Source: a virus. From it: a stretch of DNA of 12,306 bases. The notes under the pieces were generated by a model. The model saw nothing but the letters and a program-made list of their open reading frames with translations. It had not been told where the DNA came from and did no database searches. Made by a program: the position numbers and the translations under genes. The stretch is from the IMG/VR virus record IMGVR_UViG_3300029240_000049. One strand, given 5' to 3'. Numbering within the stretch: position 1 is the first letter of the stretch; each line of letters starts with the position of its first letter. Of the stretch, positions 1-12,306 are shown one piece after another.

Positions 1-95
1 GTAACATATCCGTGACTGACGGACACGTGTCTCCCCACGGTGGACACCATGTGTGCGTGAACGGTGGACACCATGTGTGCGTGAACGGTGGACAC
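1..95. repeat. Left inverted terminal repeat (ITR-L)
   Basis: Bases 1-78 are the exact reverse complement of 12229-12306. Identity continues to base 95 with 3 mismatches (positions 79, 85, 86). Contains a perfect 10-bp palindrome GACACGTGTC at 22-31. Confidence 0.97.
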
Positions 96-96
96 C
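37..96. repeat. Tandem 24-bp direct repeat (2.5 copies) inside ITR-L carrying GGTGGACAC motifs
   Basis: ACGGTGGACACCATGTGTGCGTGA at 37-60 is repeated exactly at 61-84, with a partial third copy at 85-96. The GGTGGACAC core lies at 39-47, 63-71 and 87-95, exactly 24 bp apart. Confidence 0.95.
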
Positions 97-121
97 TGGT
101 ACCGGGAACCAGGTACCGGGC
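95..121. repeat. GGTACC-containing direct/palindromic repeat cluster at the inner edge of ITR-L
   Basis: GGTACCGGG occurs at 98-106 and 112-120. CCTGGT (95-100) can pair with ACCAGG (108-113). GGTACC is itself palindromic, so several alternative hairpins or cruciforms are possible. Confidence 0.8.
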
Positions 122-138
122 AATAAGTTAATCTAATG

Positions 139-3946: not shown

Positions 3947-4363
3947 ATGAAAAAGAGCACCAAGAGCACCAAGAGCACCAAGAGCACCAAGAGCACCAAG
4001 AGCACCAAGAGCACCAAGAGCACCAAGAGCACCAAGAAGATCAAGCCGATTCGGGTTTCCAGCATGTCCATTATTCGCGCCACGCCGTATGAGGATATGT
4101 ATTTTTTTGACATGATCCTTAACGGTATCAGCATTTACGGCTGTAAGCTGATCGAGGGCGAAAACGGCCGGTTTATCGGGTTCCCGTCCAAGAAGCCTGC
4201 CGAGAAAGGCGGCAAGTGGTATAATCACTGCTGGGCGCCCCTGTCCGAAGACGATACCGCAGAGATCATCGCTGCGGTGCTGGAAGCCTGTGACGAGGAC
4301 GAAGACGTGGACGAAGACGTGGACGAAGACGAGGACGAAGACGACTTACCTTTTAAGGAGTAA
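3947..4363 (+). CDS. Chimeric nucleic-acid-binding protein: basic (KST)x9 N-terminus + SpoVG-like core + acidic SSB-like C-terminal tail
   Basis: The core [62 protein letters not shown] resembles, from memory, SpoVG ([32 protein letters not shown]..P....KIQ.AVL). The C-terminus is about 22 residues that are almost entirely D/E (two V interspersed), ending DDLPFKE. The N-terminus is MK(KST)9KKIKP. Confidence 0.7.
3953..4033. repeat. Nine perfect tandem copies of a 9-bp unit AAGAGCACC (encodes KST)
   Basis: Units start at 3953, 3962 ... 4025, with no substitutions. A partial tenth unit (AAGA) follows. Confidence 0.98.
4292..4345. repeat. Imperfect 12-bp tandem repeat (GACGAAGACGTG-like, about 4.5 copies) encoding the acidic tail
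   Basis: GACGAAGACGTG at 4298-4309 and 4310-4321, with variants at 4322-4333 and 4334-4345 and a partial copy at 4292-4297/4300. Confidence 0.85.
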
Positions 4364-4365
4364 CA

Positions 4366-5388
4366 ATGGGACTGTATCTGCATAGCGGCTATGTAGATAT
4401 CCCGTGGGTGCTGTCCGGTCACCTGCCATTTGTAATAATGGTGGGTGGCCGCGGCACCGGTAAGACTTTCGGTGTGCTGGAATATTTCCGGCAATCGGCG
4501 GTTGATACCGGTAAGCGGTTTATCTACCTGCGCCGCCGCCCTGATGAGACGCGAACAACGGGCATACCGGAGTTGTCGCCGTTCAAGAAGCTGGATGAAT
4601 ACCACGGCTACAACACATTAACAAAAAAGATGGGTAAAGACTGCTACGGTTTTATTGATGAGGAGAGACAGCAGCTTATAGGTTATAGCATGGCTTTGTC
4701 TACCTTTGCAGATGTCCGTGGTATTGATGCGTCAGACGTACAGGCAATCATTTTCGACGAGTTCATCCCGGAACGGCACCGCAGGCCGATAAAAGACGAA
4801 GCAGCAGCATTTTTTAATGCTGTGGAGACGGTCAACCGTAACCGTGAGCTGTCCGGCGGACCTCCTGTACAATGTGTACTGCTATCCAATGCTAACTTGA
4901 TGGGCAATCCTATTTTTCTGGAATTGGGTATTGTCGGCAGGGCTGTCAAAATGTATAAATCAAAAACGGAGATTTATAAAGACGCGGAACGCGGTCTGTT
5001 TCTGGCAATCTTGCAGCGCTCCCCTATTTCGGAAAAGAAAAAAAAGGAAACAGCGCTGTATAAGTTGACAGCCGGTACAGGTTTTGCGGCTATGGCCGTT
5101 GACAACGACTTTTCGGAAGAATGCACAAATCCAAGAACGGCGGTGTTGAAAGAGCTGCGGCCAATTTCCAGCGTGGGCGAAATTACTATTTACCGCCACA
5201 AATCGGAAAAATGGCTATATGTCTCGAGCCATAAGTCAGGATCACCGGAGGAATACAGCAGCGGGTCTATTGATCTATCGCGTTTTCGCATACGGTATAG
5301 TTGGCTTGTGTCGGCCTATTTTTACAAGCAGGTATTTTTTGAAGATTTTTTGTCTGAACTGCTATTCAAAAAGTACATGGATTTGTGA
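4366..5388 (+). CDS. DNA encapsidation (packaging) ATPase, phi29 gp16-like
   Basis: Walker A GGRGTGKT (4444-4467) and Walker B IIFDEF. The N-terminal context VIMVGGRGTGKTF...GKRFIYLRRRPDE mirrors, from memory, phi29 gp16 FVIGARGIGKSY...GEQFIYVRRYKPE. At 340 aa it is similar in size to gp16. RBS AAGGAG. Confidence 0.9.
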   Translation: MGLYLHSGYVDIPWVLSGHLPFVIMVGGRGTGKTFGVLEYFRQSAVDTGKRFIYLRRRPDETRTTGIPELSPFKKLDEYHGYNTLTKKMGKDCYGFIDEERQQLIGYSMALSTFADVRGIDASDVQAIIFDEFIPERHRRPIKDEAAAFFNAVETVNRNRELSGGPPVQCVLLSNANLMGNPIFLELGIVGRAVKMYKSKTEIYKDAERGLFLAILQRSPISEKKKKETALYKLTAGTGFAAMAVDNDFSEECTNPRTAVLKELRPISSVGEITIYRHKSEKWLYVSSHKSGSPEEYSSGSIDLSRFRIRYSWLVSAYFYKQVFFEDFLSELLFKKYMDL

Positions 5389-5394
5389 AAAAAA

Positions 5395-5423
5395 TTGACA
5401 AATGTGCATGGCTGGTATACAAT
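5395..5423 (+). promoter_or_regulatory. Near-consensus sigma-A promoter P2 (candidate late promoter)
   Basis: TTGACA (5395-5400), exactly 17-nt spacer, TACAAT (5418-5423). Shares the TGGTATAC string (5413-5420) with P1. Located in the 144-nt gap between the ATPase and holin genes. Confidence 0.75.
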
Positions 5424-5429
5424 AAAGGA

Positions 5430-5506
5430 GGTAGTGGCAGCGGCCATGCACAGCCCCGGAAGGGCGGCCATGCGCGGGTGCAGCGCACGAGCTGCCATTA
5501 CCACCA
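5430..5506 (+). ncRNA. GC-rich structured RNA element at the predicted 5' end of the P2 transcript (5' stabiliser, regulatory leader or candidate pRNA-like RNA)
   Basis: A 12-bp helix pairs 5430-5441 (GGTAGTGGCAGC) with 5491-5502 (GCTGCCATTACC), with one G-U. It encloses two predicted hairpins: GGCC/GGCC plus GCCC(5453-5456)/GGGC(5462-5465), and TGCGC(5471-5475)/GCGCA(5483-5487). There is a 10-nt direct repeat GCGGCCATGC at 5440-5449 and 5464-5473. The element is followed by ACCA. Folding was done by eye only. Confidence 0.4.
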
Positions 5507-5532
5507 GACCTATTTTATAAGGAGGATATATT

Positions 5533-5730
5533 ATGGACACTAACGCAATCATTCAGTTGGTCAGTACCCTGGGGTTTCCTATCGTCTGCTGCGGTGCGCT
5601 GTTCTGGCGCATGGTCAAGTCCGACGAGCAGCACAAGACAGAAATGGACAAGTTTTCGGAGGCCCTGAATAACAACACTGTTGTTATGACACGTCTATGC
5701 GAAAGGATGGGCGATGATGGCCACATCTAA
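5533..5730 (+). CDS. Holin, BhlA/UviB-like (65 aa)
   Basis: RBS AAGGAGG 7 nt upstream. A single N-terminal TM (IIQLVSTLGFPIVCCGALFW) is followed by a charged coiled C-terminus (KSDEQHKTEMDKFSEAL), the BhlA/UviB pattern as I recall it. Lies immediately upstream of, and overlaps, the endolysin gene. Confidence 0.75.
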   Translation: MDTNAIIQLVSTLGFPIVCCGALFWRMVKSDEQHKTEMDKFSEALNNNTVVMTRLCERMGDDGHI

Positions 5731-6376
5731 AAAAATTAAGATCGCCCTCAGCCCGTCCGATCAGTACAGAAACTTGTACGCATACGGGGACACCAACGAG
5801 GGCTACCAGATGCACTGTGTAGCGGATAAGCTGGTGGAGCATCTTCTGCGCTGCGGTGTGGATGTTGTGTATCTGCCCAGCGGCTATCTGTCAGATCGTG
5901 TCAGGAAAGCAAATATGGCACATGTAGACGGCTATATTGCTCTCCACACCAACGCTTTTGACGGGTCTGTACAGGGAATCCGGGTGCATTGTTACCCGTC
6001 CGACAAAAGCCGGAAATTTGGAAAGTGCATCATGGCCGCACTTGATACGGTGTATGATGGGTCTACCAAATCTAAAATCGTGGAAACTGACAGCCTGTAC
6101 GAGCTCAAATACCCGTTTGCACCGGCAATTCTGCCGGAAATTGGTTTTCATGACAACATTGACGATGCCGAATGGATTGTCAACCACGTTGACCAGATCG
6201 CCGAAGCGCTGGCAAAGGGCATCTGCGAGCACTTCAAAATGCCGTATGTTGCACATGTAACAATCATGTATCACGTGCAGGTCGGGGCATTTGAGAAGCT
6301 GGAAAACGCGGAAAAAATGCTGGCGACTGTGAAACAGGACTACCCGAATGCTTTTATTAAGGAGGTGAGAACATGA
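5714..6376 (+). CDS. Endolysin: N-acetylmuramoyl-L-alanine amidase (Amidase_3-like) with a short C-terminal SPOR-like module
   Basis: YIALHTNAF...GIRVHCY and AILPEIGFHDN motifs are typical of Amidase_3 / PlyPSA-CwlC-type amidases. The C-terminal YHVQVGAFEKLENAEKMLATVKQDYPNAFIKEV is SPOR-like. It overlaps the holin by 17 nt; the start at 5714 or 5717 is ambiguous. Confidence 0.85.
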   Translation: MMATSKKIKIALSPSDQYRNLYAYGDTNEGYQMHCVADKLVEHLLRCGVDVVYLPSGYLSDRVRKANMAHVDGYIALHTNAFDGSVQGIRVHCYPSDKSRKFGKCIMAALDTVYDGSTKSKIVETDSLYELKYPFAPAILPEIGFHDNIDDAEWIVNHVDQIAEALAKGICEHFKMPYVAHVTIMYHVQVGAFEKLENAEKMLATVKQDYPNAFIKEVRT

Positions 6377-6747
6377 CATACAAGGACATTTTGGCGCTTG
6401 CTCATGCCGGTTATAGCGCCGACCAAATCGGACAGCTGGCTATGCTGGAGCAGATGCCCGCGCCTGCTACACCTGCGACACCTGCCGCGTCTGCCGCGCC
6501 TGCTGCACCTGCTGCACCTGCGACACCTGCCGCGCCTGCTGCACCTGCGACACCTGCTGCACCTGCGACACCTGCTGCACCCGCTGCCCCGTTTGACTAT
6601 CAAGCTATGATGGGTGAGCTGCTGGGTATTAAAAATGCAATCCAGACCGGCAATGTGCAGACCAGCCAGCAGCCGAAGCAGCCTATGACGGCAGATCAGA
6701 TTTTGGCAAATATCATCGCCCCGAAACCTATTAAAAAGGAGGAATAA
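6373..6747 (+). CDS. Candidate scaffolding protein with a central Pro/Ala/Thr low-complexity linker (124 aa)
   Basis: ATGA overlap with the endolysin stop. Lies directly upstream of the major capsid gene, the position of phi29 gp7. Small, with helical-looking N- and C-terminal ends. The function is inferred from position. Confidence 0.5.
   Translation: MTYKDILALAHAGYSADQIGQLAMLEQMPAPATPATPAASAAPAAPAAPATPAAPAAPATPAAPATPAAPAAPFDYQAMMGELLGIKNAIQTGNVQTSQQPKQPMTADQILANIIAPKPIKKEE
6457..6591. repeat. Imperfect tandem repeats encoding a 45-residue (P/A/T/S) tract
   Basis: Reiterated CCTGC(T/C)GC(A/G)CCTGCGACA-like units translate to PAPATPATPAASAAPAAPAAPATPAAPAAPATPAAPATPAAPAAP. Confidence 0.9.
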
Positions 6748-9413: not shown

Positions 9414-10328
9414 ATGAAACCGCCGTTTTCCTATGACGAACAGAACATTTTGGCAAGTCATAATTCACCTGGCACCGTGCACAGCCAAAACACAAATCTT
9501 GTGTACTACTACAAGCGTTATCTGCTGCAAAAAGCTATGTCGGTGTTCGAATGGCGACTGCCGGAGACATGGAGCAGGGATTACTTTCTGTATGTGTTGT
9601 ACTGCTGGGGCAACATTGCGGTTATCAACACGGACAAATATGGTGTGATTCCGCAGGGCGGTACGCTGTCCGGCTATGATATCTACTACCAGCCCACCCA
9701 TATACAGATCAGCAATCCGCTGTTGTCTGGTAATCTCTCGCCCCGTATCGGTGTTGACTGTACACTGTTCAAGTTGCAGCCTGACTATGGCGGGATCCTC
9801 GATCTGGTGGGCGACTATGCGGAATTGATGGCGATTGTGTCAGAGACTATCTCCATCAACCTTTTTAACAGTAAGATGTCGTATGTGTTCGCCGCCAGTA
9901 ATAAGACAGCAGCGGAAAGCCTGAAAAAGCTATATGACCAGATTGGGGCAGGCAATCCCGCAGCGGTCATTGACAAAAATCTGTTTAACGATGATGGCAG
10001 TCCGGCATGGCAGGCGTTTTTCCAAAATATCGGGCAAAACTACATTGTAGACAAACTGCTATCCGATATGCGGAAAATCGAATCTATGTTTGATACTCAT
10101 ATCGGGATTCCCAACGCCAACACCGACAAACGGGAACGACTGGTTACAGACGAGGTCAACGCAAACAATGTTGAAACGTACAGTAAATGCTCTTTGTGGT
10201 TGGAATCTTTGCAAGAATCGTGCCGAAAAGCAAACACCATGTTTGGGCTTGATCTGTCGGTTGACTGGCGAAAAATCCCCACAATTCCCGGAGGAGGTGC
10301 AGCCGATGCGAGCGACAATGTCAATTAA
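9414..10328 (+). CDS. Portal / upper collar connector protein, phi29 gp10-like
   Basis: 304 aa (gp10 is about 309 aa). VFEWRLPETW and GIPNANTDKRERLVTDEVNANNVETYSKCSLWLESLQESCRKANTMFGLDLSVDWR closely parallel, from memory, gp10 LFEWENLPPT and [56 protein letters not shown]. Confidence 0.9.
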   Translation: MKPPFSYDEQNILASHNSPGTVHSQNTNLVYYYKRYLLQKAMSVFEWRLPETWSRDYFLYVLYCWGNIAVINTDKYGVIPQGGTLSGYDIYYQPTHIQISNPLLSGNLSPRIGVDCTLFKLQPDYGGILDLVGDYAELMAIVSETISINLFNSKMSYVFAASNKTAAESLKKLYDQIGAGNPAAVIDKNLFNDDGSPAWQAFFQNIGQNYIVDKLLSDMRKIESMFDTHIGIPNANTDKRERLVTDEVNANNVETYSKCSLWLESLQESCRKANTMFGLDLSVDWRKIPTIPGGGAADASDNVN

Positions 10329-12187: not shown

Positions 12188-12222
12188 GTGGTGGACATGT
12201 GACAACGTTACGTGTCCACCAC
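12188..12222. repeat. Near-palindromic hairpin at the inner edge of ITR-R
   Basis: GTGGTGGACA (12188-12197) pairs perfectly with TGTCCACCAC (12213-12222). The pairing is extendable to about 16 bp with two G-T/G-U positions around a 3-nt loop (12204-12206). The 5' arm is an extra, oppositely oriented GGTGGACA motif unique to the right end. It lies 45 nt after the last stop codon, with no U-tract. Confidence 0.8.
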
Positions 12223-12270
12223 TCACGTACACATGGTGTCCACCGTTCACGCACACATGGTGTCCACCGT
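12211..12270. repeat. Mirror-image tandem 24-bp repeats inside ITR-R
   Basis: GTGTCCACC (reverse complement of the GGTGGACAC core) lies at 12212-12220, 12236-12244 and 12260-12268, again 24 bp apart. The innermost copy is slightly diverged. Confidence 0.93.
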
Positions 12271-12306
12271 GGGGAGACACGTGTCCGTCAGTCACGGATA
12301 TGTTAC
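12212..12306. repeat. Right inverted terminal repeat (ITR-R)
   Basis: Reverse complement of 1-95 (92/95 identical by manual base-by-base comparison; the terminal 78 bp are perfect). Confidence 0.97.

Follow-up and report, generated by a model that had tools for sequence, protein, structure and literature searches.

In Bacillus phage phi29, a prohead RNA (pRNA) is the main link between the DNA packaging ATPase gp16 and the prohead, and the C-terminal domain of gp16 binds the A helix of this RNA without sequence specificity (bioRxiv 10.1101/2020.07.06.188573). The pRNA docks on the portal protein (connector). According to PMC3479190, a CCA bulge in the phi29 A helix is required for docking of the ATPase, and Watson-Crick complementarity between a bulge and the loop of the D hairpin has been described for pRNAs (PMC5066667, PMC12670572). 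Such RNAs have been considered exclusive to phi29 and its relatives among the Bacillus phages (PMC11476376, PMC5066667), and the latest search returned phi29-, GA1- and DLc1-type pRNAs only (PMC12670572). Here we describe a 73-nt element at positions 5430-5502 of the 12,306-bp virus record IMGVR_UViG_3300029240_000049 (the whole of which is called the window below), which comparative sequence analysis places in a large, previously undescribed family of structured phage RNAs of ~65-85 nt. The single most likely reading of this element, and one about as apt to prove wrong as right, is that of a miniature pRNA supplied by the leader of the late mRNA.

Firmicute and phage mRNAs can carry 5'-terminal stabiliser stem-loops, such as those of ermC, the aprE leader and SP82, which are simple hairpins. 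Three-way-junction riboswitch aptamers (e.g., purine and THF-I) use loop-loop or loop-bulge contacts, and leaders of this kind are a common riboswitch design. In phage lambda, the PR' 6S leader goes with antitermination by Q, and the put RNA of phage HK022 has two stem-loops but neither a junction nor a loop-loop helix.

Fold of the RNA and covariation among its relatives

The element lies in the 144-nt gap between the genes for a gp16-type packaging ATPase and a holin (Table 1). A preliminary description of the window had noted here a 12-bp outer helix with one G-U pair, closing a GC-rich insert with two further hairpins, and had proposed either a pRNA analogue or a stabiliser of the 5' end of the late transcript. 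Folding bears out this architecture: the minimum-energy structure of 5430-5506 (-41.6 kcal/mol, z = -3.18) is a three-way junction, in which an outer helix, P1 (the equivalent of the pRNA A helix), encloses a C helix that leads through a bulge on the 5' strand into an E hairpin, and a D hairpin, whose 7-nt loop holds the self-complementary UGCA that had also been pointed out. The 10-nt direct repeat listed in the same description (GCGGCCATGC, at 5440-5449 and 5465-5474) is present and arises from the palindromic GGCC helix together with AUGC. The motif AAAGGAGG (5424-5431), which had been taken to resemble a ribosome-binding site (RBS), reads AAAGGUGG in the closest relatives, where it lengthens the outer helix to 15 bp. 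Two of 200 shuffled sequences folded equally well. The signal from this single sequence is only modestly unusual and by itself unconvincing, and the case for more than chance is made by the relatives.

To collect these relatives, DNA around ATPase homologues was taken from GenBank phages, IMG/VR and metagenomes, giving ~163 loci. Downstream of the ATPase stop codon, the same layout recurs in loci whose ATPases are only 40-57% identical to that of the window: a consensus promoter, ~6 nt, P1, a 4-bp C helix, a 7-9-nt 5'-only bulge, a 4-bp E helix with a CGGAA loop, a D hairpin and a purine-rich junction, with a P1 sequence that is completely different between loci. A covariance model (R1), built from a gapless alignment of 27 sequences, matches 128 of the ~163 loci, once in each and on the strand of the ATPase gene wherever RNA and ATPase are adjacent; its match in the window spans 5433-5499 (74.5 bits, E = 2e-17). 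In the closest relatives, 72-73 of the 73 nucleotides of the RNA are identical, as compared by a pairwise aligner, and the flanking coding DNA is 84-92% identical. We found no earlier description of this RNA family in the literature.

The preliminary description had suggested looking for covariation of the helices in related genomes, and covariation was found in all four. In the gapless 27-sequence alignment, 93% of cells are paired, with a covariation score of 0.859 (0.18 when shuffled). Among 86 distinct model-aligned sequences, 89.9% of cells are paired as against 54.3% after shuffling, and the covariation score of 0.851 (shuffled, 0.172) was reached by none of 500 shuffles. Double changes occur in 25 of the 27 pairs, and P1, C, E and D are each 93-100% paired: all nine modelled pairs of P1 show compensatory changes (93% of cells paired), as do the E helix (100%), whose CGGAA loop is nearly invariant, and the D helix (99.4%). 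RNAalifold independently gives the same four helices, with all 20 of its pairs compensated, and its table shows that G-U pairs are frequent (e.g., 20 at one pair of the E helix) and A-C pairs rare. The structured molecule is therefore the RNA of the plus strand and not duplex DNA.

These substitutions also bear on the possibility that the fold is incidental to a short peptide or to a DNA-level element such as a protein-binding palindrome. The 24-codon open reading frame (ORF) that had been reported to start with the ATG at 5446 does exist, and palindromic GGCC and UGCA words are present. However, an internal ORF of at least 15 codons occurs in just 27 of 88 parsed relatives, so that the frame does not represent a conserved gene; the substitutions track base pairing rather than codons, and the G-U to A-C bias singles out the plus-strand RNA. 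We thus give this explanation almost no weight, covariation having effectively ruled it out.

Pairing between the bulge and the D loop

A feature that the preliminary description had not listed is the complementarity of the internal-loop UGCAC (5447-5451) to GUGCA (5478-5482) in the D loop. Loop-loop complementarity played no part in choosing or aligning the sequences. When 69 distinct loop combinations were compared without fixing the register, the longest Watson-Crick run between bulge and D loop of the same molecule had a mean of 4.43 nt, compared to 2.75 nt when loops were swapped between members, and the native value lay beyond all 10,000 permutations. The complementary words are diverse, with more than 20 in use, including UGCAC/GUGCA, GGAC/GUCC, UGUCA/UGACA, AAUCA/UGAUU and CUAUCA/UGAUAG. 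In the gapless 27-sequence alignment, the four core loop-loop pairs are formed in all 108 cells and are of the types GC, CG, AU and UA; their covariation score is 1.009 as against 0.214 (0 of 500 shuffles), and registers slid along the loops are 18-42% paired. A fixed-register count on the 88-sequence model alignment gives 63% paired, because members with 6-nt D loops sit one column off, and the loop-loop tests are for this reason the register-free one and that on the gapless alignment. By these comparisons, the Watson-Crick complementarity of bulge and D loop is kept by covariation.

Comparison with phi29 pRNA

The Rfam consensus for phi29-type pRNA (RF00044) reads, in its 5' half, as the A helix, one junction base, a 9-bp C helix, a 9-nt 5'-only bulge and a 4-bp E helix with a 6-nt loop, and, in its 3' half, as a return strand with no unpaired base, UUU, a 6-bp D hairpin with a 5-nt loop, and the A helix. 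The order of helices in the new family is identical (a terminal helix, a three-way junction, C, a 5'-only bulge, a 4-bp E helix whose loop has 5-6 nt, and D), and in both, bases in the 3' part of the bulge can form Watson-Crick pairs with the D loop, with which they covary. Both RNAs are carried by protein-primed phages that encode homologues of a gp16-type ATPase and a gp10-type portal, in both the transcript starts at the terminal helix from a host-type promoter (a predicted start in the new family), and in both the structure is kept as the sequence drifts. A freely varying P1 fits the sequence-nonspecific binding of the A helix by the C-terminal domain of gp16.

The two also differ in several respects. 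The RNA described here is ~73 nt long (120-174 nt for pRNAs), its C helix has 4 bp rather than 9, its P1 is an unbulged helix of 9-16 bp rather than one of ~25 bp with an essential bulge, and its loop-loop pairing comprises 4-6 bp rather than 2-4. The CGGAA of the E loop is invariant in this family, and the RNA is a late-operon leader, whereas phi29 pRNA is an independent, terminated gene near the end of the genome.

Accidental resemblance to pRNA is made unlikely by the exact layout together with the occurrence of homologues of both pRNA partners in the same phage, and phages with a gp16-type ATPase are expected to need something to dock that ATPase; for these two reasons, we take a miniature pRNA as the most likely reading. 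We infer a start site, a release from the mRNA, an intermolecular loop pairing and a role in packaging as follows. Host RNA polymerase would start at P1 from the consensus promoter, so that the RNA forms the 5' end of the late transcript (holin, endolysin, capsid, portal), and this compact, 5'-paired domain would then outlast the mRNA or be cleaved off within the A/U-rich spacer. Pairing of the bulge of one molecule with the D loop of its neighbour would close a ring on the portal vertex, as in phi29, with the E-loop region contacting the prohead and P1 docking the gp16-type ATPase, which itself has no portal-binding domain.

Several observations, both structural and positional, weigh against a pRNA function. 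RF00044 has no match at E <= 10 in the whole window, nor in 5400-5535 searched alone, although the same search recovered the pRNA of Bacillus phage Goe15 as a positive control (142 bits). No conserved bulge is present in P1 in the 88-sequence alignment, unlike the bulge that phi29 needs, and the junction J31, between D and P1, has 4-5 nt where the corresponding junction (D to A) of phi29 pRNA has none. C and D are stems of the same short length, 4 bp, a geometry compatible with docking of the two loops within one molecule. The phi29 portal binds pRNA through a basic RKR patch, and the N-terminus of the portal encoded in the window (MKPPFSYDEQ...) is without it.

The positional observations are that the RNA was never found as a separate gene, being always a late-operon leader among the members examined, which fits a role in cis equally well, and that in 87 of 88 members it is followed after 15-45 nt (median 28), on the same strand and without a terminator, by an RBS and start codon. 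The RNA of MT835998 heads the holin-capsid operon (R1, 42.5 bits, E = 2e-9), preceded by TTGACA-17-TACTAT, even though the ATPase gene lies ~8 kb from it and on the opposite strand. From this arrangement, the RNA tracks the start of the late operon and not the ATPase gene, which is more simply explained by a role in cis. Finally, in one sub-clade (L016, L017, L023, L034, L036, L038-L040, L065, L096, L100, L107, L113, L146, L157, L143 and L086), a spacer motif 10-16 nt after P1 is complementary to the E loop and covaries with it (CCGGA/UCCGG, UCGGA/UCCGA, CCUGA/UCAGG), and MT835998 has an 8-nt match of the same kind (CGGACGGA/UCCGUCCG; L380, 1128-1140). This complementarity is suggestive of a pseudoknot in cis, or of another pairing, immediately before the RBS, and in these phages the E loop may pair in cis instead of binding a protein.

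The pRNA analogue proposed in the preliminary description is supported in part: the structure is real and conserved and has the helix order and loop-loop complementarity of phi29 pRNA, but its invariable position as a leader and the lack of an RF00044 match stand against it. R1, for its part, does not detect phi29-type pRNA. The only Rfam matches in the window or the short region were sub-threshold chance matches (e.g., an enterovirus cloverleaf on the wrong strand), and the GenBank record of phage Cp-1 contains no annotated pRNA with which the position could be compared.

The RNA at the head of the late operon

The preliminary description had also proposed a near-consensus promoter, TTGACA-17-TACAAT, and this is present directly upstream of the RNA, where it is the best match in the window (11 of 12 positions), although promoter-like matches as a class are not enriched there (19, with 18.1 expected). 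A -10 box occurs in all 88 parsed relatives, separated from P1 by 4-8 nt in most cases (mode, 6), and the TTGACA is perfect in the majority. This conserved spacing fits a transcript that begins at the first helix, for which the predicted start in the window is ~5429-5431, at P1. In many relatives (L011, L012-L016, L031, L035, L091, L092 and L096), the TGA stop codon of the ATPase gene is embedded in the TTGACA of the -35 box, such that gene end and promoter overlap; in the window, the two are 6 nt apart.

The location of the RNA makes a purely cis-acting leader a serious rival, given the strict leader position and the E-loop/spacer pairing, and one that we regard as possible but on balance doubtful in all of its forms taken together. 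Under this explanation, the bulge and D loop pair within one molecule, as a pseudoknot that holds the 5' domain in a compact form. This domain could protect the late mRNA against 5' exonucleolytic decay, either as a 5' stabiliser or in the manner of an exonuclease-resistant xrRNA; alternatively or in addition, its invariant CGGAA loop could be bound by a factor, from host or phage, through which the expression of holin and structural genes is tuned. The RNA is at the predicted extreme 5' end of the mRNA, a short distance ahead of the first late gene, and it follows the late operon rather than the ATPase gene not only in MT835998 but also in L018, L027, L032 and L093, where an extra gene is inserted after the ATPase gene and the RNA lies beyond the insertion, adjoining the late genes. 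The compensatory changes in the E-loop/spacer complementarity, including its 8-nt form in MT835998, add to this, and three-way-junction leaders with loop contacts have ample precedent among riboswitches. However, the window and 62 of the 88 relatives have no expression platform, that is, no terminator and no pairing that would sequester the RBS. The downstream gene, usually a small holin, is in some lineages a holin of another type, a scaffold-like protein or something else, and a gene-specific operator is therefore disfavoured. Moreover, the near absence of the RNA from the motif matches listed for cellular genomes (see below) counts against this explanation, and the pRNA layout, in a phage with both pRNA partner proteins, would have to be a coincidence.

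The simplest form of this explanation, the 5' stabiliser of the preliminary description, agrees with the leader position and promoter spacing: as in known stabilisers, a stable helix lies at or within a few nucleotides of the predicted transcript start, ahead of the RBS, and the distance from the -10 box to P1 is compatible with such a function. Known stabilisers, however, have no conserved loops or tertiary pairings, and since a simple hairpin suffices for 5' stabilisation, the elaborate conserved fold, with its three-way junction, invariant CGGAA pentaloop and covarying loop-loop helix, would be left unexplained. The resemblance to purine and THF-I riboswitches is one of site and shape (a 5' leader, a P1 closing a three-way junction, and a long-range contact made by a hairpin loop). 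In contrast to these, the junction core is not conserved, most members are without an expression platform, the best-conserved part is an exposed hairpin loop rather than a ligand pocket, and among the motif matches listed for cellular genomes there is one weak R1 match (see below).

A further explanation, which we consider quite improbable, is that the RNA attenuates transcription or serves in antitermination, much as the HK022 put RNA or, together with Q, the lambda PR' 6S leader does. P1 and a following U-tract would stop most transcripts, and read-through into the lysis and structural genes would be permitted by a phage factor or by a direct action of the RNA on the polymerase. The order of a consensus constitutive promoter, a short structured RNA, and holin, endolysin and structural genes does parallel the lambda late operon, with a strong promoter and lysis genes at its head. 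At least 5 U fall within the 8 nt right after P1 in 30 of 88 relatives, and MT835998 has UUUUUG directly after P1. But in the window P1 is followed first by ACCAGACC, with no adjoining U-tract, and the terminator scan found nothing there; two thirds of the relatives have no U-tract either, and U-rich spacers are expected ahead of any RBS. As in the window, no terminator follows the RNA in most relatives, no Q-like protein was identified, and the covarying loop-loop pairing would be unexplained. Two loci, L127 and L131, have an extra 14-15-bp hairpin ~70 nt after the RNA and before the holin RBS, followed in L127 by UUUGUU, and this hairpin may be a terminator or a processing site.

A miniature pRNA and a cis-acting leader are not mutually exclusive, the deciding question being whether the loops pair between molecules or within one. 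It is conceivable, if unlikely, that the RNA does two jobs, serving as the 5' domain of the late mRNA and as the precursor of a ring-forming miniature pRNA, with an invariant E loop that either docks on the prohead or pairs with a complementary motif just upstream of the holin RBS. Were this so, assembly of the packaging motor would feed back on the translation of lysis and structural genes; as a corollary, pRNA would be ancestral to phi29-like phages at large rather than a peculiarity of Bacillus phages, and could be as small as ~70 nt.

Distribution and diverged relatives

For an unbiased view of distribution, a degenerate core motif was scanned against IMG/VR and against bacterial and archaeal genomes, and the matches were then passed to R1. 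Among the 80 motif matches listed for IMG/VR, 57 were R1-positive, all on viral contigs of 5-14.4 kb, and among the 80 listed for bacterial and archaeal genomes there was one weak R1 match (25.5 bits). The carriers are well over a hundred small phi29-like phages of gut and rumen, with genomes of 10-14 kb. In more than 100 such phages, the family offers a concrete candidate for an ATPase-docking RNA, and it bears on whether motor docking requires an RNA in the many other phages whose ATPases are of the gp16 type. Should the RNA prove to be a pRNA, it would have about half the length of the minimal phi29 version and programmable loop pairs of 4-6 bp, features of interest for motor mechanism and for RNA nanotechnology. 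Otherwise, it still represents a new and very well supported class of structured RNA with an invariant loop, heading a phage late operon.

R1 gave no significant match on the cultured phages AD70P3 and CI461P1, on Cp-1 or on the phi29-type Goe15. In Amedibacillus phage AD70P3 (OP172639, recorded as Guelinviridae), a candidate element follows the packaging gene (L168 6290-6368, minus strand): TTGACA-16-TATATT, 5-6 nt, a 6-bp P1, a 5-bp C helix, an 8-nt bulge, an E hairpin with the loop CCGAA, and a D hairpin, with bulge and D loop complementary as UAUCC/GGAUA. Recognised by eye and by folding in this one sequence, it is a probable distant member of the family, and its presence in a cultured phage makes the question of an ATPase-docking RNA testable at the bench.

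Diverged variants occur at the same position in two other phages. That in MT837693 (L005 5590-5735) is ~150 nt long and has the same C helix, a bulge AUGUGCA and a D loop UCGCACA, with a much larger E arm and extra hairpins; that in MT838040 (L006 1325-1425) keeps the CGGAA hairpin and has a weak D stem. In Clostridium phage CI461P1 (L169 9905-10026, minus strand), the polymerase and packaging genes are separated by a 149-nt gap that begins behind a TATAAT box, folds stably (-34.8 kcal/mol) and ends in a U-rich run; it may hold a different structured RNA adjoining the ATPase gene.

Genome context

The window is a complete linear genome of a protein-primed, phi29-like phage, as the 95-nt inverted terminal repeats (ITRs) at its two ends (1-95 and 12212-12306, 97% complementary) show, and all of its genes are on the plus strand. 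A megablast search of the genome against GenBank phages gave no match. Its genes include those for a DNA methyltransferase, a protein-primed type B DNA polymerase (PolB), a weakly SpoVG-like protein and the gp16-type ATPase, followed by a holin, an amidase endolysin, a phi29-type major capsid protein and a gp10-type portal. By phmmer, the ATPase matches phi29 gp16 (7JQQ) over residues 24-250 (E = 2e-14), and the portal likewise matches its phi29 counterpart of solved structure (Table 1). The spacer between the RNA and the holin gene contains no terminator according to the terminator scan, and no motif complementary to the E loop is found in the lineage of the window.

Table 1. Coordinates of the RNA, its parts and the adjoining or related genes in the window
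Feature	Position	Strand	Evidence or remarks
gp16-type DNA packaging ATPase gene	4366-5388	+	Pfam Podovirus_Gp16, 1.3e-23; directly upstream of the RNA
Promoter, sigma-70/sigma-A type (predicted)	5395-5423	+	TTGACA 5395-5400, 17 nt, TACAAT 5418-5423
Possible P1 extension	5427-5429 with 5503-5505	+	Fold
P1, 5' strand (equivalent of pRNA A helix)	5430-5441	+	12 bp with 5491-5502, one G-U
C helix, 5' strand, GGCC	5442-5445	+	99.7% of cells paired in 86 sequences; two inner pairs freely exchanged
CE internal loop AUGCACA, 5' strand only	5446-5452	+	UGCAC 5447-5451 complementary to 5478-5482
E hairpin: GCCC, pentaloop CGGAA (5457-5461), GGGC	5453-5465	+	Best-conserved part of the family
C helix, 3' strand, GGCC	5466-5469	+	Adjoins E, with zero unpaired bases between
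D hairpin: GCGC, 7-nt loop GGGUGCA (5476-5482), GCGC	5472-5486	+	U5471-A5487 a possible fifth pair
Junction J31, ACGA	5487-5490	+	Alignment; family consensus A-N-G-A
P1, 3' strand	5491-5502	+	Fold, covariation
A/U-rich spacer with RBS AGGAGG (5520-5525)	5503-5532	+	Sequence, terminator scan
Holin gene, first late gene	5533-5730	+	PHROG phrog_4898 holin, 5.2e-9
Amidase endolysin gene	5714-6376	+	Pfam Amidase_3
gp10-type portal (connector) gene	9414-10328	+	Pfam Phage_connector, 1.5e-30; phmmer match to 1H5W, 7PV2

The gene just upstream of the ATPase gene (3947-4363) has a sub-threshold match to SpoVG (E = 1e-4, 22.8 bits, with a cut-off of 29.6). As SpoVG proteins bind nucleic acids, its product is, speculatively, a possible partner for the RNA.

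A second location for a pRNA had been suggested in the preliminary description, on a leftward transcript from a promoter-like arm near 131-160, but R1 has no match there and the fold is unremarkable; a leftward run-off RNA (1-135, minus strand) was rejected as a pRNA, since it folds no better than its shuffles (z = -1.2) and is not matched by R1. The same region contains an inverted repeat (128-151/195-218, 79%) that flanks an AT-rich core and carries in each arm an extended -10-like motif of the type TGTGGTATAC, which suggests that the arms are divergent early promoters. The ITRs hold internal direct repeats of ACGGTGGACACCATGTGTGCGTGA (37-71 and 61-96). Upstream of the polymerase gene, a 175-nt intergenic region (1861-2035; -53 kcal/mol and z = -2.5 for the whole region) can form a long imperfect hairpin at ~1908-1975, and a GC-rich stretch with negative GC skew (6401-6700, 0.60-0.665, compared to ~0.48 for the genome) lies within the unannotated ORF 6373-6747.

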